Positions 31,583-64,000 of a DNA stretch of 64,000 nt are shown here, one piece after another. Made by a program: the position numbers and the translations under genes. A model generated the notes under the pieces. The model was not told the origin of the DNA. It searched no databases and worked only from the letters and a program-made list of their open reading frames with translations. The stretch is from the IMG/VR virus record IMGVR_UViG_3300045988_183533, one strand, 5' to 3'. The number at the start of each line of letters is the position of its first letter. The stretch's first letter is position 1. The DNA is from a virus.

Positions 31583-31651
31583 CATGAGTAACTTCTCCTT
31601 TTTCATGTGTGTTTGTTTGACGTGCATAAACAAGCTTCATGCACTATGCTT

Positions 31652-39771: not shown

Positions 39772-39850
39772 CCTTACCTACTCCCTAGTGTGCAGCCTTG
39801 ATTGTAGATAAGAAAGTATATCAAAACACAGGCAATCAAATTGCATATTT

Positions 39851-39882
39851 ACAATATGCCACAAAAAGACATAAAAGTCAAT
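39851..39882 (-). promoter_or_regulatory. B-type promoter for the MBG-repeat giant gene (TTGACT-N17-TGTGGCATATT)
   Basis: -10 at 39853-39858, -35 at 39876-39881. Confidence 0.55.
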
Positions 39883-39895
39883 CAAAAATTTCGGC

Positions 39896-49100: not shown

Positions 49101-52100
49101 GATTTCTCGATAGAGACAATTTCCTTATCGCGAACGGTCAGAGTACCATCCACATACTTGATGATGTAGTTGGCATTGCTGCCGCTGCCATCTTCGGTGT
49201 TGATGATAACTGCATCGCTGGGAACGTTCTTGCTGGAACCCACTTCGGTCTGAGAACCGGTTACGGTCACGGAATCCATCTTATCGTGAATGCCAAGCAG
49301 GTCGTTATCTACGAGTTCCGGAGCGTAGGTATAGCCGGGTTCCGTCAACGGAGTGCCGTCATATACCTTTTCTGCGGAGTTTGCAGTAATGGTTACCTCA
49401 CGCGGGTCAATGAAGAAATGTCCGGGAGTTACTGTGCCAATCTCAATATTATCTACCTCGGTATAGGTAGGAACAATGGAATAGCCGGGGTTCTCAGTAC
49501 GAACATTCTCACCCGGAACACGAGCCGCATCCAGATTCAGGGCACGGTCGATATAATCGCGCAGGTCCTTATCCGGAGTGTAAGGCTCATCTTTCTCGTT
49601 CGTGAGCGTATAGGAAACATTGAACTTGTCGGGGTCGTTATCGCCGTAGGTCTTGCGGTCGTCCTCCGCCTTGATGTTAATAATCAAGGGTTTGACGGTC
49701 AACTTACCATCGATGTAAACGAAATCGTAGTTCGGGTTATGGAAAGTAGAATCCTTGGCAGATACAGGATATTCACCAACAGGGCTCCACTTCTCTGCGT
49801 CCGTCTTGGTCTTGAGCGCATCCTTGCCACCGATATCATCGATGGTATCACCGCGCTTATAGCCGGTAATGGTTACGTTGGGTTTCGGGTTATCTTCGCC
49901 GAAATACTTTTCGTCATCAATAACCGTAACAACGATAGTTGCAGGAACGATGGTCAGAGTACCGGGAGTGGTAATGATTTCATAGTTGCCGGACGGGTCA
50001 GTACCATCAATGGTGATGGGATACTTGCCTACCTGCTCACCGTCATCAGTATCAGCACCGGGACGCTTCGTGGTGATATCGAAGAAGTCCTTGTCGCCTG
50101 GATTGACCAGTTCTTCGGGGTCAGTAATCGTCCAAGTCAGCGGGTCGGGGTCTTTCTCTCCGTAAACCTTCTGCTGGTCATCTGCCTTCACATGGATAGG
50201 TTTCTTACCAATCGTCAGGTCACCGCCAACATAGATAAACTTGTAATTGCTGTTGTCAGCAACCAACTGCTGTCTATCGTAGTTGATGGGATAATTACCA
50301 ACTTTCGTCTTATTCGTTACGGGATTGCCAGCGTTATCGTTGCAGTACATTGTGGCAGTACCGGAAACCTTGGATTCGTCATCCTTGATACCGGTGCCGG
50401 TTTCATCCTTAACGTCACGACCGACAAAGCCAGTGATGGAGTAAGTGAATTCGGGAATCTCATCGCCGTAGGTGGTCTTGTATCCGCCATCGACCGTAAC
50501 AGTAAGTGTTGCGGGGACGATTTTCAGAGAACCATCGTATACGGTGACGGTATAGTTCTTGTTGTTTGTATCGTACTTTGCGGAAATGAGGTAATCGCCA
50601 TCATAGAGGGTGGTTCCCCACTTATTGAGAGAATCGGCTGCGGTAACATCGCCGCGCACAACATTCTCACCCTTGGTGCGGTACAACTCAACGTTCAGTG
50701 GGCTGTTTTCGGGGTCAATCAGGCCAATCACATTGCCAGCATTGTCTTCGTAATGGAAGGTAAATGCCGGGTCAGCGGTGCCGTAGGTCTTGACCTTATG
50801 GTCAATGCGAACAATCAGTTCCTTCGGGTTAACAGTGATATCGCCATTGACATAGCGGATAACATAGTTCTTCTCGAAGTTTGTGTTGCTCTTGACTTCG
50901 AAAGTGGAGCCGATATGCTCTTCACCGTCTTCCAGAACAACGCAATCCGGGTTCACCGCATCCTCATTGTTGTTGCCAGCAGTTACAATGTACTTGCCAG
51001 CGTCAGACAGGTCGAAGCACAGAGTAGCGAAGCCAAGTTCACCGTTCAGAACGGTTTCCTTCGTGTCATCACGCTTGAAGCCGGTAATATCGGCATCAAA
51101 TGCGGGATTCTCTTCGCCATAGGTCTTGGAATAGCCACCCTTTACGGTAACAACCAGCTCAGCCGGAGTAATCGTAAAGTTGCCATTCTCCATGGTAATA
51201 ACGTAGTTGGTGATACCATCCTTGCTGACAGGGCTGATATCGTTGGCGTTGATGGCGTAAGCCTTGCCGAACGAATGCTCGCCAGTCCAGACATCTTCAC
51301 CGGGTTCACGAGTCACGCCAGTACCTTCGAGGTCGCCGGGCTGGACAGGCACATCCGCGCCTTCCTTCTCGGTGAGAACGGGACCGTTTGCGTACTCGAT
51401 GTAGTAGTTGCCATCTTCGCCACGGACACCGTCATGGAGCGTGTACTTCAATTCGGGGTCAGCATCGCCGTAAACCTTGGTGTTATCCGCAGCAATAACG
51501 GAAACGGGGCGAGGAATGATAGTCAGGTTGCCAGCTGTAATCGTGATGTCGTCATCATCATAGATGGTGCTGTGGACACCGGACAGGCTGATGCAATTCT
51601 TGTAGGTTCCGCTGGAACTGGTCTGCGTATCCAGATGCGTGAAGGTGAAGGTGGAGGTATTGAGTCCTGCCTCTTCTGCCGTGATTTCAACAGCTTCGCC
51701 GTTTTCTACCTTGAACACATGATATGTGTAATCGGAAGAACCATCGTAGAAGCGGTTGACACGGTCGCCGTAATAGCGAACCTTATCATCCACGGTAATC
51801 ATCAGACCCTGACGCTTGACAATGAGGTCGTTTGCGTAACGATATTCAAAGTCATAGTTCGGGTTATCCAGCTCAAGCTGTTTCTGGTCATTTGCTGCGA
51901 GGTTTCCAATCTGACGGTCCTGCGGCGTGGAGTAGACGGGATAAGAACCGACTTCTTCACCCTCTGCACGAACCAGATTGAAGACGATGGGAACCTTATC
52001 GGGGTTCACAACAACGCTTGCATCCGTGATGCGGCTGCCTGCGCCGAGCTTCTGCTGACCATTTACGGAATTATGGGTAATCATATCGGTCAGGGTGAAG

Positions 52101-55100
52101 TCCTGAACCTTATCAGCATCGCCCAGTTCCTTCTGCCAGCCAGTGACTTCCAGCAGCATCGGACGAGGTTTGATAGTCAGAACACCGGGCGTGTAGTTCG
52201 CAATCGTATAGTTATAACCGCCATCTGCGTTTTCACGAGGTACGAGAATCGTATGCTCTTCGCAGTAACTCTTATCGCCATACAAGTAATTGGAACCGAC
52301 ATCGGTGTACTTGTTGTAAGTCAGGTTGATGTAATCGCTCAGAACATTCTTTGCGGTTTCAAGAACCTTCGCGGTTGCGCCATCGTTATTCTTCAAAGCA
52401 ACATCAGCAGTATCGCCGTGCTTCAAGCCAACAACGGTCAGCGTGTAGTCGTTTTTGTTATCTTCGCCGTAGTAACGCTCCTGATTACCAAATACGATTG
52501 TCAGCGGGACAGGCGTAATGGTCATCTTAGCGTCGTTCGTTTCGACGATATAGTTGCTTGCTGTGCTCTTTTCGTAAGAAATACGGATGGTATATCCTTC
52601 GTCACGGACATTCTCGCCGCTGTCACGAACTGCCTTGATGCCGAACATTTCGCTGGTAGGCTTAATGATTTCGCCATCGACAGTCCACTTCAATGCGGGT
52701 TCCGTGCCGCCGTATGCTTTCGTTGCATCCAGAGCCGCAATGCGAATCAGACGAGGATGTACTTTCAGAACATTGGACTCATAAACGAGTTCGTAGTTGG
52801 AAACTACCTGTCCTTCACTGTTCGTGACGGTCTTGATGCCAAGAGTATTGCCGTAACCGGTGTTTTCGTTCACGGATACAGGATATCCATTTACGGGAAC
52901 ATGGGTATGCGGGTGGTCGCCGTCATGATAATGCTCATGACCCTTGTGCATTTCGTTGTATTTCTCCAAGCAGTAAGCACATTCTTCTTCGGGAACATCC
53001 GTCTGATAGATTACATCACTGCTCTGTGTAGCGGTTGTCAGATAAGGCAGATTAGAAGTGCCGTTCTTGAATGCCAGAGCGGTGCGAGAAGCACCGTTTA
53101 CGACTTCAACCACATTACCGATGGTATCATTACCAATCAGATGCATGTTGTTGTAATCAACGGTAGCGTCATCGCCCAGAACGGTCCAGTTGTTCTCGTC
53201 CGAAACATCCAGTTCATTGCCTTGGTCATCTGTGCCAAGAACCTTGAATGTGGAGTTGAAGAACGGGTTCGTTGTACCGTAAATCTTCTGGCTTTCGTCA
53301 ACGGAAATCATAATCTTGCGGGGCTTGACCTCGATAGAACCGGGGTCTTCCGTGACAACATAGTTTTTCAATACATCATAGTTGAACTCGTTCAGACCAA
53401 TGTAAGATACAGGGTAAGAACCAGCATCCGTCGTCTCGCTCGGTACTACATTGTATACGAATTTACTCTGATAATTGTTTGTCTTTTTCGCTTTCAGGTC
53501 GAGTTTTTCGTCGTCCGAAGAAGCGGTCTTATGGTCTTCGACCAGACCTTCCATGGTCAGCCAGCTATCAGAACCCTTATTCCAGTAGTAGACATCGTCT
53601 GCATACGGAAGTTTGATATTCTTGAAGCCATGTCCATAAGTGGTGCTTACGCTCTTGACCTGCGCACGCAGCGTCGTACGGTAAATACCACCGCTGAAAG
53701 TCTTGTCTGCGATATAGTAGTCGTTGTAGTTATTGTTCACAAGGTACATTTCATTGTTCTGTTCAATGTCACGCACCAGTGCGTTCGTATCATCGATATC
53801 CTGTACAGTGTACTCGAATACGATGTTTACTGTGCCGCCAACTGGAATTGTGTCAATGTAGAACTCTGTGCCCTGCTGATTCATACGAATGCCATTTGTG
53901 GATTTCAGGGTGATGGGACCATTACCTGCAAATCTGCTCTTCAGACGCAGGTTCTGGATGGCAACAGGAGCAACATAGTTGTTTTGTGCGGCCAGACCAT
54001 ATCCGGTATCCTTGTTCGTAACTGCAATCGTAACAGTCATCTTCTGACCAACCTGCGGGGTGGTCGTGCTGTAGCTGTACTTTACAGAATACGGCAGATG
54101 GCGAATCGTATTCATCGAAAGACCATTGTAACGGTCTTCCTTGATGACACCATTGTCGCCGTTTGCATCATACCCGGTCAGCTGTTCGCCAGCATTGCTG
54201 TCAGCATAAGAACCAACATAGGTCTGAGCATTCAGTTCAACGGAATCATAGTTGGTGATATTATCAATATAGATATTTCCCTGTCCTTCTTCACCGATAT
54301 TGGCGTTGTAGTAGGAATCATATACCTTGATGTTGTTCGGATTCACTACCGTGTTCTGGTAGTTATCCTGTTCGGTCTTGGTATAGCGGGTAATATCGAT
54401 GTTTTCCTGTTTACCAGCAAGAATCATTTCATATGCCTGCTCGATAGTCACATTCTGATTATCGTAGACAGTCGTATCTGTCAGATACTTGCCGTTTCCG
54501 ATATCATTGGAGTTACCATCGTAGTTCCACTTGTATTTGTTCACATCATGATACTGACTGTGAACATACAGAGGACGAGGATTGATGGTACCAGTGAAAT
54601 CTTCACTTGCAATATAATAGTTGTCGAACGGGTTGTTAATCAGTTCAAGAATCGTAACGGTCTTGATACTGTGCAGACCCGTGTGGATGGACTCTCTGAA
54701 ACTCGTCTTTGCGAAGTCCTCAGGAGCATAGTTTTCGCAATAATAGCCGTAAGCCAGTGTACTGTTCAGCGCGACAGTATCGCCGTGAACAATACCGGAA
54801 TCAGCAGTTGCTGCTTTGATTTTAATATCAGATACCTTTGCGGTGCTGATATTGTCGTAAATCTTATTGTTGTCATAGCTGTAAAGATGCAGCGGGCGCG
54901 GATAAATATCGAAGTATACGACATTACCGTTGCCGGATACATATTCATCAGGTGTAGTGCTTTCTCCACGGACTACATAAGTCTTGCCGGGCTTCGTGTT
55001 CTCCCAGCAGAAAGTAACTTCGTACTTGCCCGTGTAGGTTGCCGTAGCAGTGTAGGAGCCGGTACGAACGAGAGGCTTCTTCTTGCTATCGGTAGTAGCG

Positions 55101-58100
55101 TTTGTAGGATATGTGATGTTGGGAGATTCGTTGTTCGAATAGGTGATGTTTACGCCACGCAGGATTTCCTGTTCATCGATACCTGCATCGGTATCGCCGT
55201 CCCATACAACGTGTGCGGCAACAGTCAACTGGTTGCCGTCGTACATCTTGTTAGCAACAGTCAGCATGACCTTGGCACGAGTAGGAGTGCATTCGTTTGC
55301 ATCCTCGAAGCCAATATCCATTGCGTTCTTACCAACGCGACGATACAGACGTTTGTTCAGGTCAACGACCTTGATTTTTGCACGACCAGCCTGACCAATA
55401 CCGGAACCGGCACCGTCATTCAGCTGGTCTGCACCAGTGACGTTTGCTTTAATGATGATGTTGCCGTTGTCAAGGTTTTCACCAACAGAAGCGGCATAAG
55501 AAGAACCACGCAATGCACCATCGGTAGAAGCAGACTGCCAACCAGAACCGCCGCCGTTTTCGTGCAGTGTGTTGTTGTAGCCTTCCTCGTCTTCTCGCTG
55601 CATTTTGATATCACTGCTGTGGGTGCCACTGTAAGTCCAGCCACAGATATCGCCATGATGGTATTCGTAGCCGTCGCTGAAGACCTTGTCTTCCTTTAAT
55701 GCACAGTGATAACGCTGACCACTGTTGTTTGAACCAGAACCGCCGACACCGCGCGTGGTGTATCCGTTGCCGGAAATTATTGCAGCACCGGAACCACCGC
55801 CAGCAACGCCGAACATCGACGAACCGTCACCGTAGTTCTTCAGCTGTCCGTCACCGATAAGGCCAAAAGCAACCGTGGTAGCGCCACCACCACCGCCAAA
55901 GCCTATGGGAGAATTGCTGTGGTAGCTGTGGTCAGGGTCGCCTCCCCCTTTATAGCAGTCATAGAACACTGCGCCGACACCACCGGAACCACCGCCGTTA
56001 TAGCCACCGGAACCACCGGAACCACTGCCGGTAGAACCGCCACCGGAACCACCACCGGAACCGCCACCGCCTGCACCGCCAGCGACAAAGTAGAGGGTCG
56101 TGCCTTCCTTAATGTCTGCTGTGATAATGGTGTGGCTGCCGGAGTTGCCGCTGATACCATCTGTCATACTTGCATTGCCGCCGCCAGCACCCCACAGGTC
56201 AATCTGATAGGTTGCATCGAACGGAGCGGTCCAAGAAGAAGTGGGATTGTTTCCGTCATTGGCTTTGAACGACTTGTCGGCCGCACGAACATTCTTTTCA
56301 TCGATGTAGAAGAAAACCTGTTCGTTGGTGCCGTCAAACTCTTCCATGTCGTAGCAATGATACTGGATAGCATTGCGCCAGAACCATTGCCAGATTTCCT
56401 TCGGGTAAGAATAATCGGACCATAATGCATAGCCGTGGTCCAGATAAGGTGCATAGTCCTCGTTGTTCTTGTCCAGATATCCGCGTTCATCGAGAGAAAT
56501 GCCAAGTTCAGCCATCGTTTTGCCCTGAACATCAATCTGAGAAGGATTGCCGTTCATGTCATAGCGAGTAACGGTTGTCATTTGTCCCTGATACGGGGTA
56601 TTGAGGTTAACACTCAGATGGTCGCTCTGGCTGAACACGGTACGAGAAGTGTCTCTGTGCTTGCCGTACGGGAACTCATTCACAATCTGATAGCGGGACA
56701 TAATGTACCGAAGTCCATTAGGCGCTTCAATTGTCAGTTCGGGATACATGAAAATAGAGTGTTTATCAACGCCACAACTAACAAGATTGCGCTCGTTTGC
56801 ATGGATACTGATATTGTAATCCAGCCACAACTCTGCACCAGTGTCGGTGTTATCTTCATCGATACCGCCATTCACATAGTCAAAGTTATGAGCAAGGGTA
56901 TTTGTGATGGTCTGACTCTTCAGTTTCGTGCTGTTGTAGCCACGAATGTATTCCAGATATGGTTTGCACTGGAAATAGAAGTGCTCAGTACCAAAATCCA
57001 TCGGGTTCGTTGCGGATTCGATATGCAGGCTTGTGGTAATACTCCACTTCGCATATGCGCTGTTGATGTCGAACGGCTGACCGTTCAGCATCGTATCCTC
57101 AACAGGTCTGATATCATCAATGGTGATGTAGGCAGTAAACTTACCGAACGGAGAACCGGAGTGCTCGGTTTCGATTGCGTCAACAACCTGCTTCATTACA
57201 GAACTGTCATCTGTATTGATGTCGTATCTGGTTTTGACGATATTTGCCCAGTCTTTGTAGTTTTCGGTGGTCAATCCGTTTCCGCCATTTGCATACCCGT
57301 TGATATTGATGGGGGCAATGACAGGCTTATAGTCGGTGGATTCCGAATTCAAGTCGTCTTGGAATCCCCACTGCAATACAGGGGTAAGAATACGGTTTCC
57401 AGATTCCGTCAATTTACCGGGGGAGAATGTGATAGTCGTTGTATAAACGGCCACGTTCTTATCGGAAATCAACGGGTTATTAGAACCACCTCTGCTGGCA
57501 TTCCAGTTATCTACTTGGTCCTGTGTAGTCTCAACAGACCAGTAATTCTGACCAAAATCGCCAGTCGCATCGCCCTCGCTGTTATGCTCCTGCATCATCA
57601 ATGCACGGGCTTCCAGCATAGTTGCGGAAACGAAAGGTGCATCGACCTGCAACAGGCCATAACGGGAAGTATCGAACCCTGCATTGTCAGCATCGCCGAT
57701 TGCGCTGTAGGAGTTCTCGACCTTGGTTCTCTTTTCGTTAAAGCGATAGCTTGCAACGATACGGAAATAATATCCGGACCAGTTGTAATCTGCCGCGTGC
57801 AGAGTAAGGGTGATAGTAGTGTGTTTCTGAGCACACTGCTGGTCAGTGAAACCATCAGGACGCCAGAAATCGGCAGGCAGCCATTTGTTGTCATGAATCA
57901 TACTTGCGGTCTCTTTCCCCTTTGCGAGGGTATCGACCGTATGTGCTTCGATGTCAACCTTGTTTACCTGACTATTATCTACGGTATTCAGTGTATAAGT
58001 ACCGCCGAATGTGACGGATGTAGCAAGAGTCTGCCAATCGTCATCATGGGGGTCTTTGTACTGAACATCGTAGCTGTAGCCCTTGTCATCAAGGCCCTTC

Positions 58101-61100
58101 CAGTAATCTGTTTCAAACACGAAGGTTGCTTCGTCCTGAGTCATAACACGCTGATTCGGTGCCTGCGTCATGGACATGGGGCGCTCTTCGATTTGAATGA
58201 TACCGGAAGCTTCCGGAGTGATTACGCCGGGGTCGATGGTGGAATAAGTTTTGCCCTCAACCTCGTAGTCTGTACGAAGCTGAATAGCGTTTCCTGTATA
58301 TGCCAGCATTTGCAGCTGTACATCCACGGAACTGTGCGGGTAATTATATACACCATCATTACCGTCATGGAATACCGGCGTTTTGATGATACCTGTTACG
58401 GCACCGTCTTCGGTAGTGAACTGACCGTAATGACCAATCTTGACCCAGTCGCTCAGAGCATTATTGGTATTACGCAGGTCAACCACGCGGTAATACCATG
58501 TTACGGATTCATTGCTGATGGGCTGATTGTAGATGATACCGGAACCTTCGAGAACCTTGGTGGTCTCGCCTTCCCAGTAACGGTAGTTCTCAATAGGTGT
58601 TGCTTCGATTGTCAGCAGTTCCAGAGGAACCGTTTCACAGTCGTTCCAGAAATGAGGAGGAACCTTTGCAACGATAGGACCGTATTTAGTGACTTCGTTG
58701 CCAGCCTTGTCATATACGCGGGCACGAAGAATCGTTTTGCCGCCTACATAGATACAAGGCAGGTTAGAAATACAATACTGGTCTACGTTGTTGACTACGC
58801 AGCTGAAGTCGTCGCCTTCCTGCAGCAGCGCAGTATTGTCCTCATACCGGATATGGACGGTGTATCCCTCGTGAACCTGACCATCGTTGAACAACTTTGC
58901 GTCGCTCAGCTTGCCGTAGATACGAGCGATACCGGTGGTACGAACGGACGGAGAGCTGTTACCGCTGTCCTTAAAGACAGTGTCCCAGCCTTTCAGTCTA
59001 TCAGTACCAAGGTTCCAGTCGTTGCCGTCTCCGGTACGGTATGCACCCAAATCACCGGTGGTGTTATCGAACAGAGCACCGTTTTTGGGGACTTTTACAT
59101 CGAAGTATTTGCTGTTCCAGTGACCTGTGAAGTTCTTGATAGGCTTCCAAGTCGTGGAATCAAAGCCCAGCTTCGTCAGGTCGAGGTCTTCCATCAGTTC
59201 GTAGCAATCGCTCAGAGGATACCAGTAGCTGCCGCCATTGGCGAGAGCTGTCAGAATCTTCTTGGCGTTTGCTGCATTGACACGATGGACGAAGTGCGTC
59301 ATCTGCTGGTCGGCTTGGTCAGCGGCACAGACTTCACACTGCTTGCGCTGAGAAATCCACATCAGGGTGTTGACGCAAAGTTGCATTTCTTGAGGAGAAG
59401 CGCGGTTAATATGACCACCGCCATCATCCAAAGGAAGGTGACCAATCTGGTTCATAACAAAGTTGCCGGAACCAGCCAGATAGAAGTTATTGGTGCCGCT
59501 GCGTCCATCGACGGTGGGCTCATACAGCTTACCAAGGCCAGCATTTGTGAAATCAGATGCGCAGCCGTTGTACTGAACCCAGATATCGTCGAATGCGACC
59601 TGACCATTACTGTGTGTCAGAGCAGCAGGGACTGTCTGCCCTACACTGAACTTATAAGGCCAGTTAGTCGGTGTACGGTGCTTGATGTCGGGGTTGACCA
59701 TTGCCTCTTCGTATGTGAAACCACCATTAGAACGGATACGAAGACTTTCAGAACCGTAGATTGTTGTCTTTAAGAACGGCCCATGCGAACCACCGGAAGA
59801 CATAATAGCGGAAGGTACAGTCAGCGGGTCAACAATCCAGCCGAAATACGCTTCATCGCTTGCAGAGTAGTAGCCGGAACCAACGAGTGTGTTGGAATTG
59901 TTTTCACCCATCAGAGCGTTCATATTCCAGTGACCACCGCTGACTTCCCAGCTATTTACCTGATAATAACGAGTAGCAGTATCGTTCGGGTCAATCTTTC
60001 TTTCGTCATAAATGTTGTTGGGGTAGCCACGGCCACCGCCATGTGCATCGAACCAGGCACCGGCATAGGCGTACATGGTATCGTGACCAATACCAAAGCC
60101 GTAACCATTGCCAATATAGTTCTTCAAGGCATAATAGGCTTTGCCAGACAAGTCAGGTTCCGAAAAATAGCATGTTCCCCAGTATACAGAATCGACTCGA
60201 TAATTTCCTTCTGCATCCTTTAAATATCTGTCAGGGTCGACGTTAAAATCGTTGCACGAAACTGTATTCAAAGTGATGTGAGCCATACCATTCTGAGAAT
60301 AACCATTTGTCATGGCTTGATTTACATATTCTTTAATGGTAAGGGGAAATGTCCTTCCATCTTCCTCCTTGGTATAGCAGAACAGAACCTGAACAGCATC
60401 CTTGTAGGAAGTGCCGCGACCAGATGCGGGAATAGAAACCGCTGCACCAGTAGCAGTGTTACCTACGATATTGCTATTGTGATAACGGAAGTAAACTGTT
60501 TTGCCGTACCATTCGGAGTTGATTTCGAGTTTGTTGCCGTCCGTGAGCGCAAACGATTTATATTTTCTTGTTCCTCCGGTTGGTTTCCCTTCCGAATCAA
60601 GTTCGTTTGCATTGGCATTGCCATTAAAATTGCCGCCAATATACGACCACATGCGGTCGGCTTGCTGTCCTGTGATTTCGCCGTTTGCAAGCCAACCGCT
60701 TTTGCCGTCTTGTCCATAAATCTTGGCATACATATCAGCTGTCAGGTATTCCATGCCAGCAGACAGACCGGTCACCCACTGAGGATTTGTCTGGCTGTCA
60801 AGTTGGACGCCTGCTGCATAGGTAGCAATGCCAGAAAGGGCAAGACGCTGTTTCAACTTGTCCTCTACAGACAAGTCATTGTACATTTCGTCTTCACTCT
60901 TTTCCATCGACGGGATAGAAACAGTGATTTCTGTTGTGATGGTATTGTCGAGTGTATCATCGGTGAGCTTGTTTTCATCTGCGCCGTTTGCAATCAGTTC
61001 TTCCTTGGCGGCAGCAATATAATTGTCGTCATCGATAGTGATTACACAGCGGTAAGTGGTGTAAGCATCATACTCATCGATGGTATGAGTGTAGGTATCA

Positions 61101-62101
61101 GAAGTTGCTCCCTCAATAGCTTCCCATCCATTGGCCGTAAGAGTATCCTGACTCTCCTCACTTTGTTCGGTTTCTGCCGACTGCACAGCGACATCATTTG
61201 TCGTGCTCTCGGTAAAAACAAATTCATTGTTTTCATTCAGCGTTGCGGAAGCATGTTCGTTACCCTTGTCAGCAGAAATAACGATATTGCCGTCCACGTT
61301 TGCTGCGGTGATTTCGAATCCTTCCAGCGCATAGTTGCGGGTATTGAATTCGATGTTAATGTTGCTGGCGTCTGCTCCGATTGCAGCCATTGCATCGGCA
61401 ACTGCACGATATAACTCGATACCGGACCAAGTAGCATCCGGATTGTCTGCCAATGTTTCGGCAGGAGTTTTATCATCGTTCAGATAACCGTATGTAGTAG
61501 GCTCTGCATCGCTGTAATCGTACTCCATCACATCCATATCGTAATCGGTATCCTGAGGCTCAATGAACCTCTTGTACCACTGATAGTGGAGATTGACGTC
61601 ATTACGATTTACGTGAGCATTGAAAGTGACTTCATCGCCAATTTCGGCCTCGACTTGACCTTCGGTCGCATCATCAGCCAAACTGACAGCCACAAAATCA
61701 CTTTCATCAACGTCAGGAGTTTCCGTTGCTTCCGGAACTTCTGTAGGCTCAGGCGTAGCCGTCGCATCAGGAGTTTCGGTGGGTTCCGGAGTGGATGTTG
61801 GAACCTCGGTGGGCTCCGGAGTCGCCTCCGGTTCTGAGGAATCCGTTTCATCAGGCATTTCTGTGGGGACGGGTGTCCCTACAGGTTCGGTAATCTCTTC
61901 TTCAGACGAAGAAGAGCTGGCAGAGTCTAACGCTTCAACAGTCTCAGTAGAAGTGCTTTCGGATACGGCATCCGTAACAAGACTACTGTCAGTCGTGATG
62001 GGTTCTGCTGCATAAGCGATTGTGGAGCTAAATGTAGACATCGTCATCATGACTGCCAAAACTGCTGAAGCGACACGCTGCCATGTTTTGCCTTTTTGCA
62101 T
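40130..62101 (-). CDS. Giant cell-wall-anchored surface protein (7323 aa): signal peptide, T/P/E-rich linker, glycine-rich insert, MBG-type repeats, about 25 DUF11/Ig-like beta-sandwich repeats joined by PGTNPEDPENPGHGKDP linkers, C-terminal sorting signal SNKKTGIGFA plus TM plus KRKK
   Basis: Single uninterrupted 21,972-nt ORF with AAAGGAGAACGCT RBS and B-type promoter 62199-62230. Tandem DNA repeats of about 1.1 kb. Confidence 0.85.
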   Translation of the reverse strand: MQKGKTWQRVASAVLAVMMTMSTFSSTIAYAAEPITTDSSLVTDAVSESTSTETVEALDSASSSSSEEEITEPVGTPVPTEMPDETDSSEPEATPEPTEVPTSTPEPTETPDATATPEPTEVPEATETPDVDESDFVAVSLADDATEGQVEAEIGDEVTFNAHVNRNDVNLHYQWYKRFIEPQDTDYDMDVMEYDYSDAEPTTYGYLNDDKTPAETLADNPDATWSGIELYRAVADAMAAIGADASNINIEFNTRNYALEGFEITAANVDGNIVISADKGNEHASATLNENNEFVFTESTTNDVAVQSAETEQSEESQDTLTANGWEAIEGATSDTYTHTIDEYDAYTTYRCVITIDDDNYIAAAKEELIANGADENKLTDDTLDNTITTEITVSIPSMEKSEDEMYNDLSVEDKLKQRLALSGIATYAAGVQLDSQTNPQWVTGLSAGMEYLTADMYAKIYGQDGKSGWLANGEITGQQADRMWSYIGGNFNGNANANELDSEGKPTGGTRKYKSFALTDGNKLEINSEWYGKTVYFRYHNSNIVGNTATGAAVSIPASGRGTSYKDAVQVLFCYTKEEDGRTFPLTIKEYVNQAMTNGYSQNGMAHITLNTVSCNDFNVDPDRYLKDAEGNYRVDSVYWGTCYFSEPDLSGKAYYALKNYIGNGYGFGIGHDTMYAYAGAWFDAHGGGRGYPNNIYDERKIDPNDTATRYYQVNSWEVSGGHWNMNALMGENNSNTLVGSGYYSASDEAYFGWIVDPLTVPSAIMSSGGSHGPFLKTTIYGSESLRIRSNGGFTYEEAMVNPDIKHRTPTNWPYKFSVGQTVPAALTHSNGQVAFDDIWVQYNGCASDFTNAGLGKLYEPTVDGRSGTNNFYLAGSGNFVMNQIGHLPLDDGGGHINRASPQEMQLCVNTLMWISQRKQCEVCAADQADQQMTHFVHRVNAANAKKILTALANGGSYWYPLSDCYELMEDLDLTKLGFDSTTWKPIKNFTGHWNSKYFDVKVPKNGALFDNTTGDLGAYRTGDGNDWNLGTDRLKGWDTVFKDSGNSSPSVRTTGIARIYGKLSDAKLFNDGQVHEGYTVHIRYEDNTALLQEGDDFSCVVNNVDQYCISNLPCIYVGGKTILRARVYDKAGNEVTKYGPIVAKVPPHFWNDCETVPLELLTIEATPIENYRYWEGETTKVLEGSGIIYNQPISNESVTWYYRVVDLRNTNNALSDWVKIGHYGQFTTEDGAVTGIIKTPVFHDGNDGVYNYPHSSVDVQLQMLAYTGNAIQLRTDYEVEGKTYSTIDPGVITPEASGIIQIEERPMSMTQAPNQRVMTQDEATFVFETDYWKGLDDKGYSYDVQYKDPHDDDWQTLATSVTFGGTYTLNTVDNSQVNKVDIEAHTVDTLAKGKETASMIHDNKWLPADFWRPDGFTDQQCAQKHTTITLTLHAADYNWSGYYFRIVASYRFNEKRTKVENSYSAIGDADNAGFDTSRYGLLQVDAPFVSATMLEARALMMQEHNSEGDATGDFGQNYWSVETTQDQVDNWNASRGGSNNPLISDKNVAVYTTTITFSPGKLTESGNRILTPVLQWGFQDDLNSESTDYKPVIAPININGYANGGNGLTTENYKDWANIVKTRYDINTDDSSVMKQVVDAIETEHSGSPFGKFTAYITIDDIRPVEDTMLNGQPFDINSAYAKWSITTSLHIESATNPMDFGTEHFYFQCKPYLEYIRGYNSTKLKSQTITNTLAHNFDYVNGGIDEDNTDTGAELWLDYNISIHANERNLVSCGVDKHSIFMYPELTIEAPNGLRYIMSRYQIVNEFPYGKHRDTSRTVFSQSDHLSVNLNTPYQGQMTTVTRYDMNGNPSQIDVQGKTMAELGISLDERGYLDKNNEDYAPYLDHGYALWSDYSYPKEIWQWFWRNAIQYHCYDMEEFDGTNEQVFFYIDEKNVRAADKSFKANDGNNPTSSWTAPFDATYQIDLWGAGGGNASMTDGISGNSGSHTIITADIKEGTTLYFVAGGAGGGGSGGGSGGGSTGSGSGGSGGYNGGGSGGVGAVFYDCYKGGGDPDHSYHSNSPIGFGGGGGATTVAFGLIGDGQLKNYGDGSSMFGVAGGGSGAAIISGNGYTTRGVGGSGSNNSGQRYHCALKEDKVFSDGYEYHHGDICGWTYSGTHSSDIKMQREDEEGYNNTLHENGGGSGWQSASTDGALRGSSYAASVGENLDNGNIIIKANVTGADQLNDGAGSGIGQAGRAKIKVVDLNKRLYRRVGKNAMDIGFEDANECTPTRAKVMLTVANKMYDGNQLTVAAHVVWDGDTDAGIDEQEILRGVNITYSNNESPNITYPTNATTDSKKKPLVRTGSYTATATYTGKYEVTFCWENTKPGKTYVVRGESTTPDEYVSGNGNVVYFDIYPRPLHLYSYDNNKIYDNISTAKVSDIKIKAATADSGIVHGDTVALNSTLAYGYYCENYAPEDFAKTSFRESIHTGLHSIKTVTILELINNPFDNYYIASEDFTGTINPRPLYVHSQYHDVNKYKWNYDGNSNDIGNGKYLTDTTVYDNQNVTIEQAYEMILAGKQENIDITRYTKTEQDNYQNTVVNPNNIKVYDSYYNANIGEEGQGNIYIDNITNYDSVELNAQTYVGSYADSNAGEQLTGYDANGDNGVIKEDRYNGLSMNTIRHLPYSVKYSYSTTTPQVGQKMTVTIAVTNKDTGYGLAAQNNYVAPVAIQNLRLKSRFAGNGPITLKSTNGIRMNQQGTEFYIDTIPVGGTVNIVFEYTVQDIDDTNALVRDIEQNNEMYLVNNNYNDYYIADKTFSGGIYRTTLRAQVKSVSTTYGHGFKNIKLPYADDVYYWNKGSDSWLTMEGLVEDHKTASSDDEKLDLKAKKTNNYQSKFVYNVVPSETTDAGSYPVSYIGLNEFNYDVLKNYVVTEDPGSIEVKPRKIMISVDESQKIYGTTNPFFNSTFKVLGTDDQGNELDVSDENNWTVLGDDATVDYNNMHLIGNDTIGNVVEVVNGASRTALAFKNGTSNLPYLTTATQSSDVIYQTDVPEEECAYCLEKYNEMHKGHEHYHDGDHPHTHVPVNGYPVSVNENTGYGNTLGIKTVTNSEGQVVSNYELVYESNVLKVHPRLIRIAALDATKAYGGTEPALKWTVDGEIIKPTSEMFGIKAVRDSGENVRDEGYTIRISYEKSTASNYIVETNDAKMTITPVPLTIVFGNQERYYGEDNKNDYTLTVVGLKHGDTADVALKNNDGATAKVLETAKNVLSDYINLTYNKYTDVGSNYLYGDKSYCEEHTILVPRENADGGYNYTIANYTPGVLTIKPRPMLLEVTGWQKELGDADKVQDFTLTDMITHNSVNGQQKLGAGSRITDASVVVNPDKVPIVFNLVRAEGEEVGSYPVYSTPQDRQIGNLAANDQKQLELDNPNYDFEYRYANDLIVKRQGLMITVDDKVRYYGDRVNRFYDGSSDYTYHVFKVENGEAVEITAEEAGLNTSTFTFTHLDTQTSSSGTYKNCISLSGVHSTIYDDDDITITAGNLTIIPRPVSVIAADNTKVYGDADPELKYTLHDGVRGEDGNYYIEYANGPVLTEKEGADVPVQPGDLEGTGVTREPGEDVWTGEHSFGKAYAINANDISPVSKDGITNYVITMENGNFTITPAELVVTVKGGYSKTYGEENPAFDADITGFKRDDTKETVLNGELGFATLCFDLSDAGKYIVTAGNNNEDAVNPDCVVLEDGEEHIGSTFEVKSNTNFEKNYVIRYVNGDITVNPKELIVRIDHKVKTYGTADPAFTFHYEDNAGNVIGLIDPENSPLNVELYRTKGENVVRGDVTAADSLNKWGTTLYDGDYLISAKYDTNNKNYTVTVYDGSLKIVPATLTVTVDGGYKTTYGDEIPEFTYSITGFVGRDVKDETGTGIKDDESKVSGTATMYCNDNAGNPVTNKTKVGNYPINYDRQQLVADNSNYKFIYVGGDLTIGKKPIHVKADDQQKVYGEKDPDPLTWTITDPEELVNPGDKDFFDITTKRPGADTDDGEQVGKYPITIDGTDPSGNYEIITTPGTLTIVPATIVVTVIDDEKYFGEDNPKPNVTITGYKRGDTIDDIGGKDALKTKTDAEKWSPVGEYPVSAKDSTFHNPNYDFVYIDGKLTVKPLIINIKAEDDRKTYGDNDPDKFNVSYTLTNEKDEPYTPDKDLRDYIDRALNLDAARVPGENVRTENPGYSIVPTYTEVDNIEIGTVTPGHFFIDPREVTITANSAEKVYDGTPLTEPGYTYAPELVDNDLLGIHDKMDSVTVTGSQTEVGSSKNVPSDAVIINTEDGSGSNANYIIKYVDGTLTVRDKEIVSIEKSADRERATDYDVIRYTITVTNATSHDLHNVIVKDTNNFVGVPVLSQANGVTYDAEKGEFVIAEISHLRDETHTNAVTFTYTYTVDPTDHGTNNNDILENNAKITDMKVVESYTENPDGSTTPNYTEPNKEWLVETPDVDVEIIRQNLTIEKSADKTEAGVGDVVTYTLKVTNTGNTKLENVVVKDTNNFMGEPVENTKLHFGYRVNDDGTWTITSLGIGKSVTITYKYTVVADDLTNGKLDNIATATIPARKDPTIPEKPVDSNEVIVPLYYKHLTIVKSADRDHAYPGEVVKYQVTVTNDGTVDMTNVTVSDNTNALGMFIVSTGDGYTYNPETRLFTIPALNVGDSVTLNYLYIVQNGDPETIINVATAHAPKNPNTEIPGDKDIEEPSKPVEVDVLRDELTIVKNADKSFVDMNGNDTTVTYTLTVKNSGNTKLTNVIVTDTSNGNGTVEYTGDLMYDGNGKWMIPELNAGDSVEITYVYTAVAEDMNLDNGNIVNTAVAEGKNPDNKTVTSDPDTETVHVGEVPDRDIRVVKASLESSVMIGDTIHYTITVTNNGTMTAQNVVVRDFNDGIGEINAASSDKYTYDAATHSFTIAEIAAGEVVEIPVTYTVQEGDKGTVNNAAVEIPEVPKIEKKADKQTVVVGEVVTYTITVTNTTNETKTNVEVKDTNNFTSVITPAENTDVVSYIGDKVWNISSIGAGESVDIVYTYTVMNEDAPNTMLVNNAEMTYVTDSGKVKIPSNEVDIPIIPETPTPEHVGPTVVKQADKAIANIGDTVHYTVVMHNNDTVDYVNAALYDKNNFNGVITNVKNGTLESASAGSAVIKVGTIPAGKTVTVEYDYIVLNTDAGKGQDTYNELKNVATLHYWFADEDQTPENEKTKPSNEVTVKVPGSDVPVPVNPPEGKLKVEKFVDKKSASVGDMLHYTVKVSNVGDGELKNILVEDFFDGHGKLNYIPAVGVVVNGDGTYTINKLPAGTFMELRFTYVIVEGDEPEVLNTAVVTTPPVDPPLEPTKTADKKFAFVDEIVTYTISVYNPDTKAKTNVTVKDTNNFVGSINATNTDKYTYNGDNTWTIPEIGAGETIDITYTYTVQSNDEKLLENKADVTYSENGDTVKLDTPTVDVVVPDKGTVSIHKEADKKMAKPGEVVTYNVTVTNNKGFDVHDVVVTDANNFAGKITGVDGADYTFENGEFHIAEIAAGASVTLTYTYTVEIGDVPTQILENIATADVPGTNPEDPNNPGHGKDPNKPIDNDEKIPSNPVDVEVPGSETETKIPDLVLTKSVDKNEAVVGDTLNYTITVKNNGKGDAENVTVKDFFDGKGTLNFVAMDGVTDNGDNTYTIASVKAGESVTLNFTYVVVDGDAPEVLNAAVITTPEPPTDIVKSADKHIAKVNEIVTYTITVKNNSKDTLTNLLVSDTNNFKGEIEAKDGKGYTYNGDKTWTIATLESGKSIDITYTYTMQASDETVIENTADVRYSHNGTDYDIPSNPVDVEKPNDGVVTIFKTADKTKAEPNEVVTYTVTIHNGKDYDIKNVRLTDANNFAGKIEGVDGAGYKFINGEFVIDKIPAGGDAVVHYTYTVQISDVPTKILENVATAHVPGKNPGDPDEEIPSNKVDVEVPGDGTHVDVPEGKLEIVKSVDKTEAKVGDTLNYTITLTNVGGQAVKNAVVKDFFDGNGVLNFVPMDGVTDNGDYTYTVANVEKGQSITLRFTYTVVAGDAPMVLNAAVVKDPTPPVDIEKTADKHVAMVDEVVNYTITVKNTTDKAVTDLLVSDTNNFTGAIASKDNAKYTYNGNHTWTIPSIKAGESIDILYTYTVKTTDPSTLVNEADVRYTTDDGEYVIKADPVEVVVPKDGEVTIVKSGDKKIAEPGEVVTYTVTIHNGKAHDITNVVVSDSNNFAGTITGSNGVGYKFVDGHFVIDKIAAGADAVLTYTYTVQIADVPTHILENVATAHVPGTNPEDPENPGHGKDPDKPIDPDTDIPSNKVEVEVPGSEVETEIPEISITKSVDKPTAKIGDTLNYTVTVKNGGNADAENILIKDFFDGNGTLNFKAMDGVTDNGDNTYTISTVKAGESVKLRFSYVVVEGDEPLVLNAAVIKDPTPPIDVEKEADKHIAKVDEVVTYTISVKSTTSEPVDNVTVTDTNNFKGEIKAENADKYTYNGNKTWTIPTIAAGETIHITYTYTMQAEDATVIENIANVTYSKDGTDYNIPSNPVDVEKPDDGVVTIRKAADKTKAEPGEVVTYTVTVHNGKNHDIENARLTDTNNFAGEIVSVDGADYTFENGEFTINKIPAGGDVVIHYTYTVEIADVPTQILENIATIHVPGTNPEDPNNPGHGKDPEKPIDPDTEIPSNKVDVEVPGSETETEIPVIEITKSVDKAEAKVGDTLNYTVTVANKGKADAENVVVEDFFDGNGTLNFVPMDGVADNGDNSYTISTVKAGESVTLNFTYVVVTADAPKVLNAAVVKDPTPPIDVEKDADKYIAKVTDVVTYTITVKNTTDETVNDITVADHNNFAGDVTAESSNRYTYNGDGTWTIGYLDAGEALDIVYTYTVETTDESVMENTAAIKYTHDGEQYNIPSNTVDVKKPDDGVVTIWKSANKTVAKPGETVTYTVTVHNGKNHDIQNAALTDENNFSGSIFAVDGAGYHYENGVFTIDTIPAGGDVVVHYAYTVGIADVTTHILENVATIHVPGTNPEDPENPGQGKDPTKPIDPDTDIPSNKVDVEVPGSGTETDIPLEKSLTIVKSADKTKVNVGETINYRVVVTNTGEVDLVNVTVKDNNDGASHIEAKNGDGYTYDSATTTFTIARIPVGESFTLTYSYVAVDADAGHDVINVAVAKAPGQNPEDPENPGHGKDPSKPIDEDVEKPSNEVKVPVVKPSTPTTPDEPKPTPTPDNPKPTPTPVPTEKPKTPPIGWLDIFKVDGKPFSLFSIFTSNKKTGIGFAQSIVGLAAMVGIGVAALVVVNHKRKKDENDNKDNHKDDSAE
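40500..46100 (-). repeat. About five tandem copies of an approximately 1.1-kb intragenic DNA repeat, each encoding about 370 aa (three DUF11-like domains plus linker)
   Basis: Repeat landmarks at 40937, 42036, 43150, 44262 and 45318 (ggaat..tccgtatcggggtcaat..gg..tctttaccgtgacccgg...) at 80-90% identity. Confidence 0.7.
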
Positions 62102-62198
62102 AGCGTTCTCCTTTCAAAATATTGCCAAGTTATACCTTTACGCAATCTTGTTCACATATCTGCACATATATTTGCAAAATTGCATAATCAGCACACTT

Positions 62199-62230
62199 GG
62201 CGGTATCTATATTATGCCACATTTGGGCGC
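62199..62230 (-). promoter_or_regulatory. B-type promoter for the 7323-aa gene (TTGACT-N17-TGTGGCATAAT)
   Basis: -10 at 62201-62206, -35 at 62224-62229. Confidence 0.6.
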
Positions 62231-62252
62231 AATAGTCAATCAAAATTGCAAG

Positions 62253-62288
62253 AAAATAAAAGAAAAAGTCCGTCTAAAAAAGACGGAC
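62253..62288 (-). terminator. Rho-independent terminator (GTCCGTCT-T6-AGACGGAC, long T-run)
   Basis: Ends transcripts coming from the lipoprotein gene or mini-array region before the giant-gene promoter. Confidence 0.6.
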
Positions 62289-62331
62289 CTGAAAACTGAA
62301 GTATCTGTTATAGTGTATTTGCCATTGCTGT

Positions 62332-62432
62332 ATTTCAATCTAACGCAACCAATGCGGGTTGCAACGGTCTCAGCACTCAGACCATCAGGCACAACACCAT
62401 TTCAATCTAACGCAACCCATGCGGGTTGCAAC
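62332..62432 (-). CRISPR. Mini-CRISPR array: two 34-nt repeats (GTTGCAACCCGCATGGGTTGCGTTAGATTGAAAT on the minus strand; the distal copy has one mismatch) and one 33-nt spacer; type I-C-like repeat architecture
   Basis: Repeats at 62399-62432 and 62332-62365; spacer 62366-62398. The repeat has a 7-bp palindrome GCAACCC/GGGTTGC and the ATTGAAAT 3' end typical of I-C repeats. The degenerate copy is at the leader-distal end. Confidence 0.5.
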
Positions 62433-62622
62433 AGCAAACTTGTACAAACGAAGCAATAAGTTGTCATGCATTCTGTACAATGTTTGTCTGTTTTTTGACC
62501 AAACAATATGGTCAGATACTACTTACTGCAATGGAATCATATCCTTTCTTTATATAATACTTGGTGCGAAGAAGCCAGCCGCAAAAGCGATGCATTATCA
62601 CCTTCTTACTTTCTTTAATTTT

Positions 62623-63876
62623 TTAGTTATCGATATCATAAGAATTTTCCTCACTCCCACAAGATTTATCCTGCGTCCAGTCAGTTCCGGACCACTGTCC
62701 GAAGTCCTTATAACGATTATCGTAATCTTCTGTACTACCCGGTACAATATCCCCACCGCTCGGCTGCTGCTGTGCCTGCTGCTGTGCCTGCTGCTGTGCC
62801 TGCTGGGCTGCCTGCTGCTGAGCCTGCTGGGCAGCGGCCTGTGCGGCTGCCTGAGCAGCAGCCTGCTTCTGCGCAGCGGCCTTCTGGTCAGCTGCCTTTA
62901 CCGGGCAGTTGCTGCTGGTGTGACCGGTCTGGCCACAGTAGCTGCAGGTGACTGCCTTTACCGTAAGCTCGTAAGTGGAGCTTACATCCCCATCAGAATT
63001 GACTGCCATAATGGTCACATTCCCAGTGTCCTTGGCGGTCACATTGCCTTCCGCATCTACAGTAGCAATGGACTCATCGCTGCTCTTCCAAGTAACGGCC
63101 TTGTCCGTAGCATCCTCCGGGAACACGGTTGCTTTGATGGTGTGCGTGTTGCCAACGGTCAGAACGCCTTCATTGGAATCCAGCGTAATGGACTCGATTG
63201 CCTTACCGACGGTGACCTTGGTCTCGGCCTTAGCGTTTTCGGGAACGACCAGCATCTCGCTGTCCACACCGGCGTCCTCTGCCGTAGCAGTGGTGTCTGC
63301 CACGATGGTAGTGGTGATGGTGCATTCGCCAACGCCTACTGCGGTGACATTACCGGACTCATCCACGGTCGCTACCGACTCATCGCTGCTCAAGTAAGCA
63401 AGCTTGACATCGGTGGCGTCCTCGGGAGTCATCTTAGCACCCAGCGCCTTGGTAGCCTCACCGTTGAGTTCCAGACTCAGAGTTTCGGGGGCTTCTACTC
63501 CGGTGGGGAGAATCACGACCTTGATATGGGTCGTGGAAGAAATATTGGCATCTGCAACAGATACTGTGATATCAGCCTCACCGGCACCGACTGCAGTGAC
63601 CAGACCAGTTTCATCAACCGTGGCAACCTCTTCGTCGGAGGAGGACCAGGTGAGATTCAGTTTGGATGCTGCCTCGGCAATCTTTTCCTGCTCGGCCTTG
63701 TCGTCGGTACCATACTCGATATTGAGCTGCTGGGTCTCACCCTTTTCCAGCACAATGTCGGTGGGCAGCCCCACTGAGGTGATATCGACGCCGCAGCCAA
63801 CCAGACTGACGGCCATCGCGACTGCCATAATCAGGCACGCGATACGGGTAAATACCTTAACGGACATAGTCTTCAT
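62623..63876 (-). CDS. Lipoprotein with three Big_2 (bacterial Ig-like group 2) domains, CCHC zinc-knuckle-like motif and Q/A-rich C-terminus
   Basis: Start MKTMSVK at 63876 with AAAAGGAGAA RBS; lipobox LVGC. Repeated ATVDE-GLVTAVG-GEADITV Big_2 signatures; CSYCGQTGHTSSNC. Confidence 0.7.
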   Translation of the reverse strand: MKTMSVKVFTRIACLIMAVAMAVSLVGCGVDITSVGLPTDIVLEKGETQQLNIEYGTDDKAEQEKIAEAASKLNLTWSSSDEEVATVDETGLVTAVGAGEADITVSVADANISSTTHIKVVILPTGVEAPETLSLELNGEATKALGAKMTPEDATDVKLAYLSSDESVATVDESGNVTAVGVGECTITTTIVADTTATAEDAGVDSEMLVVPENAKAETKVTVGKAIESITLDSNEGVLTVGNTHTIKATVFPEDATDKAVTWKSSDESIATVDAEGNVTAKDTGNVTIMAVNSDGDVSSTYELTVKAVTCSYCGQTGHTSSNCPVKAADQKAAAQKQAAAQAAAQAAAQQAQQQAAQQAQQQAQQQAQQQPSGGDIVPGSTEDYDNRYKDFGQWSGTDWTQDKSCGSEENSYDIDN

Positions 63877-63983
63877 AGAGTTTCTCCTTTTTATGTAAAT
63901 TGTATTTTTGGTTTCGAACATCTTTTGCCATGCGCGAACCTCCTTTATGTTTATGGAGGGCCTATCTCTTACCCTCTGTCTAT

Positions 63984-64000
63984 ATTATACCACATTTATA
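63984..64000 (-). promoter_or_regulatory. Partial B-type promoter (TGTGGTATAAT extended -10; -35 lies beyond the window end)
   Basis: Identical 14-mer ATGTGGTATAATATA as in the other B-type copies. Confidence 0.45.

Follow-up and report, generated by a model that had tools for sequence, protein, structure and literature searches.

Why would a mobile element carry a CRISPR array (short palindromic repeats, clustered and regularly interspaced) of only two repeats and one spacer, with no cas genes nearby? The question is raised by positions 62332 to 62432 of a 64,000-nucleotide stretch of the IMG/VR virus record IMGVR_UViG_3300045988_183533, the whole of which we call the window (64 kb). An earlier note had described a mini-array with type I-C-like repeats at this site and had proposed that it borrows host Cas machinery for use against competitors. 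Our analysis points to a nearer source of Cas proteins. On the sequence evidence, the locus is most likely a leader-bearing mini-array of a divergent type I-C system that is encoded on the same ~350-kb extrachromosomal element, and it would serve to exclude sibling elements.

The array and its repeat family

The two 34-nt repeats differ by one mismatch, start 67 nt apart and enclose a single 33-nt spacer, just as the earlier note had reported (62332-62365 and 62399-62432). No further copy of the repeat was found in the window at three mismatches or fewer, with 0.00 copies expected from 100 shuffles. The parts of the array and its flanks, in window coordinates, are the following.

62433-62583, minus strand: leader of ~150 nt, ending ...TTTGTACAAGTTTGCT; 82-87% identity to the leaders of other arrays
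62497-62513: conserved hairpin inside the leader, with compensatory changes in relatives
62399-62432, minus strand: repeat 1 (leader-proximal); ATTTCAATCTAACGCAACCCATGCGGGTTGCAAC on the plus strand, equal to the family consensus GTTGCAACCCGCATGGGTTGCGTTAGATTGAAAT on the minus strand
62366-62398, minus strand: spacer of 33 nt, GGTGTTGTGCCTGATGGTCTGAGTGCTGAGACC
62332-62365, minus strand: repeat 2 (terminal, degenerate); ATTTCAATCTAACGCAACCAATGCGGGTTGCAAC on the plus strand, with a G15T change that opens the closing pair of the stem
62290-62256, minus strand: intrinsic terminator 3' of the array; 10-bp stem and T-run (-15.2 kcal/mol, z = -4.9)

The locus is a genuine CRISPR array, and the minus strand is the CRISPR RNA (crRNA) strand. 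That it is a real mini-array, as the earlier note held, is borne out by leader conservation, variable spacers, spacer gain at the leader end and covariation in the repeat stem. Exact copies of the 34-mer form arrays on five IMG/VR contigs of 30-346 kb, and a degenerate version of the repeat recovers 26 loci on 12 IMG/VR contigs (related loci are cited by L numbers). Arrays of this family are small (1-5 repeats, with 2-5 the norm), and their spacers are mostly 33-37 nt long. The ~150-nt leader remains 82-87% identical across arrays whose flanking genes are unrelated, and the leader-end motif is present at 11 of the 13 array sites on the 345,980-bp contig 3300023499_000220. Spacer content varies between relatives: locus L003, which is 94.8% identical to window positions 51435-62531, has an orthologous array with three repeats and two different spacers. 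Gain at the leader end is seen in L001, which has one extra spacer relative to L007 and three in common with it (spacers 1-3 of L007); the L001 sequence is cut off inside the next repeat. Within the repeat family, the stem covaries from AACCC/GGGTT to ACCCC/GGGGT and the 3' tail stays constant. Leader, variable spacers, spacer gain, stem covariation and the protospacer-adjacent motif (PAM) data presented below together establish the minus-strand orientation. The conserved leader and the mutated terminal repeat also agree with the earlier placement of the leader on the AT-rich side and of the degenerate copy at the leader-distal end.

The minus-strand repeat GTTGCAACCCGCATGGGTTGCGTTAGATTGAAAT is predicted to fold into a 7-8-bp stem with a 4-nt loop (-12.6 kcal/mol, z = -3.1), and the hairpin is followed by a 12-nt tail ending ATTGAAAT. 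This architecture is shared with reference repeats that lie beside annotated type I-C operons, namely those of Treponema pTS2 (GTCGCACCCTCACGGGTGCGTGAATTGAAAC) and Brevibacillus p1821L01 (ATCGCTCCTTATACAGGAGCGTGGATTGAAAC); the window repeat is 2-3 nt longer. An Rfam search matched no CRISPR-DR family and returned only weak, terminator-driven matches. Type I-C systems recognize a 5'-TTC PAM and use Cas5c as the pre-crRNA nuclease. The comparison with annotated type I-C repeats and the TTC PAM of nine of ten mapped family spacers support the earlier designation of the repeat as type I-C-like. Judged by these sequence features, the repeat and the system are type I-C, in a divergent form.

The arrays of relatives differ in number and position. 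On contig 3300023499_000220 (L001, L004, L011, L014-L016, L019, L024, L026) the 13 sites are spread over 92-279 kb and hold 1-4 repeats each, several being single repeats. In the siblings L004 (3483-3666) and L037 (6740-6908), a leader and a three-repeat array are inserted between the positions homologous to window 31615 and 31629; the window has no array at 31600-31630. The 42-nt 'spacer' of that sibling array is a chimera of local flank (window 31600-31627) and a duplicated leader end; arrays are therefore gained, lost or rearranged by recombination.

Spacer targets in sibling elements

The window spacer matches 38 protospacer sites, 27 of them at 33/33 positions and 11 with one mismatch, and TTC stands 5' of all. 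In the main scan, metagenome contigs were searched for 'TC' followed by the first 23 nt of the spacer, and 36 contigs matched; those whose record name states a source are human-gut metagenome assemblies. A codon-wobble scan without a PAM constraint yielded sites on a 345-kb and a 240-kb family contig, and both proved to be TTC-flanked. The earlier note had called for a search of phage, plasmid and metagenome data with the spacer. Metagenomes yielded 27 perfect sites, and 41 concatenated family spacers found no match among GenBank phages. The exact 33-mer is absent from IMG/VR, and the array region (62100-62700) matched neither GenBank phages nor PLSDB plasmids. BLAST of the spacer against the window returned nothing beyond the array itself, and the best spacer match in a near-identical locus was 22/33, equal to the shuffle maximum.

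The target is the sense strand of the orthologous Big_2 lipoprotein gene in sibling elements. The features of the window that bear on this result are listed here (ORF, open reading frame).

62623-63876, minus strand: Big_2 lipoprotein gene, 417 aa, 'self' allele, with three Pfam Big_2 domains
63979-63997, minus strand: promoter-like motif AAATGTGGTATAATATAGA with an extended -10, upstream of the Big_2 gene; a consensus match only
62267-63310, strand not applicable: haplotype-specific cassette of terminator, array, leader and the 3' two-thirds of the Big_2 gene
40130-62101, minus strand: giant ORF of 7,323 codons, preceded by a promoter-like site
60368-60402, plus strand: protospacer in the 7,323-codon gene, 34/35 nt to spacer 2 of L003, 5' flank CTC

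The Big_2 gene starts at the ATG at 63876, which has an AGGAG ribosome-binding site. The start of the longest ORF (63921) was considered and is not real; the protein read from ATG 63876 gave exact database matches.

For their first ~120 residues the Big_2 alleles hardly differ (window vs L089, 4 substitutions), and beyond that they diverge: the sequence is ...DSSF-GVVPDGLSAET-KVTV in the targeted allele and ...DSEM-LVVPENAKAET-KVTV in that of the window. The homologous site of the window (~63220-63252) has 16/33 mismatches to the spacer and is preceded by ATG instead of TTC. The window's own Big_2 allele is thus a non-target. Sibling contigs align collinearly with the window to the left and right of the segment 62267-63310 (~1 kb), which in them is swapped for the targeted allele: in L059, L060, L088 and L089, homology to the window ends at ~62245-62267 and resumes at ~63310. 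The role against competitors that the earlier note had envisaged finds support in this match to a sibling Big_2 allele.

Ten family spacers were mapped, and the best protospacer is TTC-flanked in nine and CTC-flanked in one. Both spacers of the orthologous array in L003 match the Big_2/giant-gene region in other haplotypes. One matches the Big_2 gene at 37/37 positions with TTC, and spacer 2 matches the window's giant gene (34/35 at 60368-60402, with CTC); L003's own copy has 5 mismatches in the first 7 nt (TACCGTG vs CTTGGTA). Each of two cas3-adjacent arrays, one in the window's lineage (L053/L054) and one on the 345-kb contig (L024), has a spacer with a perfect, TTC-flanked match to the other haplotype. 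Further family spacers have matches in a tRNA-Tyr gene and in an intergenic element that is repeated in the family; the carrier's own copy is mismatched at the seed end. The mapped targets are siblings, not unrelated phages.

For 5 of 41 spacers a homologous site lies within 2 kb of the spacer's own array (~0.5 expected), and 8 of 42 match the ~14-kb Big_2 and giant-gene region of the other haplotype (~1.4 expected); both hotspot figures are ascertainment-biased, the sampled loci being centred on arrays or on the Big_2/giant-gene region. We also considered a simple rule by which spacers target the adjacent gene. This rule was only partly supported: remote arrays, including cas3-adjacent ones, hit the same region.

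A short intergenic element is repeated in the window at ~3521-3663, 786-896, 5896-5949, 30048-30090 and 39845-39893, and is found in relatives at L002 6561-6905 and L005 12558-12685. The match of an L005 spacer to this element has three mismatches and a TTC PAM. L002 contains a copy that runs directly into a solitary repeat, with the junction at spacer-like sequence, an arrangement that recombination between spacer and protospacer would produce.

Cas genes of the element and the probable role of the array

No cas genes were detected among the 30 main ORFs of the window scanned against Pfam, nor among ten window ORFs (nine Pfam-negative, one with a weak DUF2325 match) scanned with PADLOC and PHROGs, which include the unannotated regions 12874-24421 and 28737-30152. 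Among 105 representative ORFs of related loci, Cas_Csd1 and Cas3c were found and traced to L017 and L029. In both, a leader-bearing array is followed by genes assigned to cas3 (743 aa), cas5c, cas8c/Csd1 and cas7/Csd2. Profile E-values are 2.8e-30 for cas3_core, 2.9e-18 for cas3_HD, 5.4e-22 for Cas5c (TIGR01876), 2.9e-59 for Cas8c (TIGR01863) and 9.1e-44 for Cas7/Csd2 (TIGR02589), and the putative Cas5 of the element matches solved type I-C Cas5 pre-crRNA endonucleases. The same cas3-cas5-cas8c-cas7 order, followed by nothing recognizable, occurs in the Pfam tables of six further contigs, and the 10 kb to either side of the cas operon showed no cas6. A second viral-binned group in IMG/VR (L031-L036, 73-161 kb) encodes Cas8c proteins 42-43% identical to those of the family; this group has no repeat within 10 mismatches of the window repeat and may be a sister lineage with another repeat.

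Contigs that share the neighbourhood of the window connect its array to this operon. Eight contigs among the matches listed encode a Big_2 protein identical to the window's over all 417 aa, and all 8 carry the identical array and spacer together with the 7,323-aa gene. The 350,589-bp contig ERZ28535911 NODE_9 combines the identical array, spacer, Big_2 protein and 7,323-aa gene (L048) with a cas operon (L054) whose ORFs are full-length. On this contig the array lies at ~206.3 kb. The operon, which shares the array's strand, occupies 249.2-255.1 kb; this puts it 43-49 kb away from the array and 41-47 kb past the right edge of the window. The 345,980-bp contig has a consistent layout, with the homologue of window 28-32 kb at 146-150 kb and the operon at ~215-222 kb. 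L045, on a 216,655-bp contig, and the window share 99.2% identity over 11.4 kb. The earlier statement that no cas genes are in view is therefore correct for the 64-kb window, which is too small to reach the operon, and incorrect for the element. Moreover, arrays with the same repeat abut cas3 and their spacers vary, which speaks against a generic intergenic repeat unlinked to cas genes, the outcome that the earlier note had weighed against its own proposal.

A plausible mode of action can be drawn from this arrangement. On the minus strand, the order is Big_2 gene, 190 nt of non-coding sequence, repeat-spacer-repeat, terminator, promoter-like site and the 7,323-codon ORF. The array would be transcribed on this strand, with read-through from the Big_2 gene as the most likely source, and the transcript would end at 62290-62256. 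Read-through is plausible because the leader has no promoter module of its own, no convincing terminator separates the gene from the array, and a terminator follows the array; the suggestion in the earlier note that the array rides on the 3' transcript of the Big_2 gene is plausible on the same grounds. The one terminator-like match between the Big_2 promoter motif and the array is weak and lies inside the Big_2 coding region (63564-63548). The element's Cas5c would cut at the 3' base of each repeat hairpin and release one crRNA of ~65-68 nt, in which the 33-nt spacer is flanked by a 5' handle of 11-12 nt (ending ...AUUGAAAU) and by a 3' hairpin. Cas8c, Cas7 and Cas5c would assemble on this crRNA, Cas3 would be recruited, and DNA carrying 5'-TTC and the protospacer would be degraded. 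We assign these steps of processing, Cascade assembly and degradation because they are established type I-C biology. A cell with the element would in this way destroy incoming siblings of the other haplotype, which would amount to exclusion or incompatibility.

A 19-nt promoter-like motif (minus strand, AAATGTGG(C/T)ATAATATAGA) is shared by the giant gene (62206-62224) and the Big_2 gene (63979-63997). It resembles the promoter module TGTGGTATAATATA at the head of the leaders of other arrays.

Spacer acquisition presumably takes place in trans, with host machinery as one possible source, because no recognizable cas1, cas2 or cas4 was found on the element. A tblastn search of 1.24 Mb of family loci found no Cas1c, Cas4 or Cas2, while the Cas5 and Cas7 controls were positive; this search for adaptation genes covered only about half of the element. 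A Cas1c pattern scan of IMG/VR, a test of low sensitivity, matched no family contig. Despite this lack of adaptation genes, leader-end gain and PAM-correct spacers are present in the family.

Several observations weigh against an active, element-encoded system. The connection between array and operon is made through contigs with the identical array and Big_2 protein, and the comparison with the window over its flanks was made with L045, on a contig other than the one that carries both array and operon. The leader copy at 62433-62583 is without the TTGAC-N17-TGTGGTATAAT (TATAAT) promoter module of other arrays, and expression must for this reason rely on read-through. The Cas5c, Cas8c and Cas7 candidates score under the NCBIfam curated cutoffs, and Cas8c shares just 22-25% identity with annotated Cas8c; Cas activity is therefore not to be assumed. 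No cas4, cas1 or cas2 lies beside the operon, the next six ORFs after cas7 being without a cas match. The array has one spacer only, unchanged in 8/8 listed contigs with this Big_2 allele, and there is no spacer turnover in the window's own sub-lineage. Finally, the terminal repeat, the source of the crRNA 3' hairpin, is weakened by mutation (-8.8 kcal/mol vs -12.6 for the consensus copy).

Three other explanations were weighed. The array could be an orphan that depends on the Cascade and Cas3 of the host. Such dependence would fit the absence of cas genes from the 64-kb window, orphan arrays that use host Cas proteins are documented on mobile elements (PMC6858448, PMC9071438), and the lack of cas1/cas2/cas4 in the family makes outside machinery likely for adaptation. 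However, the same replicon has a full type I-C interference module, with same-repeat arrays just upstream of cas3, and arrays of this repeat are absent from 185,579 species-representative genomes. The exact 34-mer formed no array in these genomes (the earlier note had proposed to look in the host genome for a type I-C cas operon with the same repeat); the degenerate pattern GTTGC-N14-GCRTTAGATTGAAA formed none either, and its two single-copy matches, in metagenome-assembled genomes of Proteobacteria, are compatible with chance. We consider reliance on host interference unlikely. The borrowing of host Cas proteins proposed in the earlier note thus gives way, for interference, to the element's own cas3-cas5c-cas8c-cas7, and may still hold for acquisition.

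Equally improbable, in our view, is that the locus is a decaying relic of a longer array, no longer expressed or used. Perfect TTC-flanked protospacers persist in 27 gut-metagenome contigs, the leader is as conserved as at other arrays, and the leader-proximal repeat equals the consensus at every position. The cas ORFs on the same contig are full-length, and arrays of 2-5 repeats are the family norm. What decay would account for is the single spacer, the mutated terminal repeat, the missing promoter module and the invariance of the array in 8 contigs, along with the solitary repeats and chimeric arrays of relatives. Least likely of the three is a regulatory or decoy RNA, that is, a crRNA-like repressor of a self gene or a repeat-mimic anti-CRISPR (Racr) by which Cas proteins are sequestered. 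RNAs of this sort exist on phages (PMC10651486; bioRxiv 10.1101/2024.10.29.618823), and the family offers single-repeat sites as well as some spacers with imperfect copies 0.2-2 kb from their own array. Yet the window spacer has no partial self match (its homologous site agrees at 17/33 positions and has no PAM), and full-length, perfect, PAM-flanked matches are found in siblings. The self copies of other spacers are mismatched at the PAM-proximal seed, a pattern that resembles escape and not tuned repression. A Racr is a repeat mimic without a PAM-matched spacer, whereas the window array has perfect TTC-flanked targets.

A mini-array that works with the element's own type I-C effector against siblings is therefore the explanation we prefer for this locus. 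A more general model can be offered only tentatively. In this model, ~350-kb gut elements would practise CRISPR strain exclusion through a dozen or more scattered, leader-bearing mini-arrays that discriminate haplotypes at hypervariable surface-protein loci; spacer and immune allele would be co-inherited in a ~1-kb cassette, and the element would have no Cas1/Cas2/Cas4 of its own for spacer gain. Since spacer and immune allele share one cassette (62267-63310), killer and resistance would be inherited together in a poison-antidote-like manner, and recombination between siblings would not easily yield suicidal combinations. If this is true, CRISPR within one giant gut-element family would decide which strain occupies a cell, and the arrays would provide a testable handle on strain-level exclusion and on the haplotype structure of a major uncharacterised gut replicon. 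The system would also provide a type I-C effector that is compact and very divergent and comes with natural one-guide arrays, a defined repeat and a TTC PAM. It raises, too, the question of how arrays grow on a replicon without Cas1/Cas2.

Known systems and the carrier element

Adaptation-less, compact-array, competitor-targeting CRISPR systems on mobile elements are already known (PMC7162821, PMC9071438), and huge phages are reported to have a type I-C variant without Cas1 and Cas2 (Al-Shayeb et al. 2020, PMC7162821; Pinilla-Redondo et al. 2021, PMC9071438). Like the systems of huge phages and large plasmids, the one proposed here is found on a very large mobile replicon, has small arrays and no cas1/cas2/cas4, and has rival elements as its targets. 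Unlike the huge-phage type I-C variant, which has another helicase in place of Cas3, the element keeps Cas3. Instead of a compact single block, it has at least 13 dispersed sites with 1-4 repeats over ~190 kb, most with their own leader. The mapped targets are also unlike those of huge-phage systems, being sibling alleles of hypervariable surface-protein genes.

Mini-arrays take part in conflict between closely related SPV viruses of Sulfolobales (Medvedeva et al. 2019, PMC6858448). The similarities to the window array are one to few spacers, matches in close relatives, a carrier that escapes and an inferred role in exclusion. In contrast to SPV viruses, which have no Cas proteins, carry host-like repeats and use type I and type III systems of the host, the element here has its own type I-C effector. 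An orphan array of the SPV type, with no effector and a host-matching repeat, is thus not what was found. Plasmid type IV-A3 systems take part in conflicts between plasmids and obtain their spacers in trans (bioRxiv 10.1101/2023.06.23.546257). They resemble the present system in lacking adaptation genes, in residing on a large plasmid-like element, in their anti-competitor role and in acquisition presumed to occur via other Cas1/Cas2 proteins. Type IV-A3 has DinG, no nuclease and a silencing activity, whereas Cas3 here predicts DNA degradation.

Among type I-C systems, pTS2 of Treponema saccharophilum provides a close parallel in its cas3-cas5c-cas8c-cas7 order, absence of cas6, 33-37-nt spacers and 5'-TTC PAM, and in a repeat with a 5' GT(C/T)GC stem, a 4-nt loop and a 3' ...GATTGAAA(C/T) handle. 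The window repeat departs from canonical type I-C in its length (34 vs 31-32 nt) and in having TTAG in place of TG(G/A) before ATTGAAA; the system departs from it in lacking cas4-cas1-cas2 and in having tiny scattered arrays, compared with the one ~60-repeat array of pTS2. Plasmid p1821L01 of Brevibacillus laterosporus (CP033461.1 19319-35019; L097) carries cas3-cas5c-cas8c-cas7 and an 11-repeat array without cas4/cas1/cas2. Interference-only type I-C modules are therefore already present in sequenced plasmids. The features that set the proposed system apart from these known kinds are the retention of Cas3, the many leader-bearing mini-arrays, targets that are sibling alleles of the element's own genes, and a cassette joining spacer and immune allele.

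Contigs with window proteins reach 345-357 kb. The element is very common: one of its proteins is found with identical sequence in 2,473 blocks of a public assembly index, and those sampled index records that state a source are human-gut metagenomes. We found no description of the element or of its dispersed mini-arrays in the searchable literature. Identity with Inocles was considered and rejected (GC 24-32% for Inocles vs 42-52% here). Although the contigs are classed as viral in IMG/VR, the element could be either a megaplasmid or a huge phage. PHROGs scans of the 105 family ORFs and the ten window ORFs revealed no capsid, terminase or portal protein; 'tail' and 'Ig structural' PHROG matches are present and could reflect Ig-like (Big_2-type) domains.

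The gene content of the window includes SecY, an FKBP/trigger-factor-like protein, a ParM/Alp7A-like actin, Dam, a flotillin-like protein and two giant surface-type proteins; related loci encode tRNAs, a CCA-adding enzyme, sortase, IscB and TnpB. IscB, TnpB and a Y1 transposase lie near some arrays of relatives (L018 1420-2967, L019 9999-11588, L050 1-464). The ParM/Alp7A-like actin gene (19985-21121, minus strand) adjoins a helix-turn-helix regulator, and a predicted DnaE-type DNA polymerase III alpha subunit of 1,379 aa is encoded at L045 2121-6260, ~4-8 kb past the right end of the window. By homology, the polymerase and the actin would serve replicon maintenance, which fits a megaplasmid-like lifestyle.

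The second giant ORF (31762-39771, minus strand) has 2,669 codons and an orthologue with an MBG_2 domain match, and the 7,323-codon ORF is only 89-95% identical between siblings. Both look like genes for hypervariable surface proteins. The SecY homologue (9861-11201, minus strand) is full-length (Pfam 1e-86) and adjoins the FKBP/trigger-factor-like gene (8123-9475, minus strand). This pair, with the sortase of relatives, may be dedicated to the export of the giant surface proteins.

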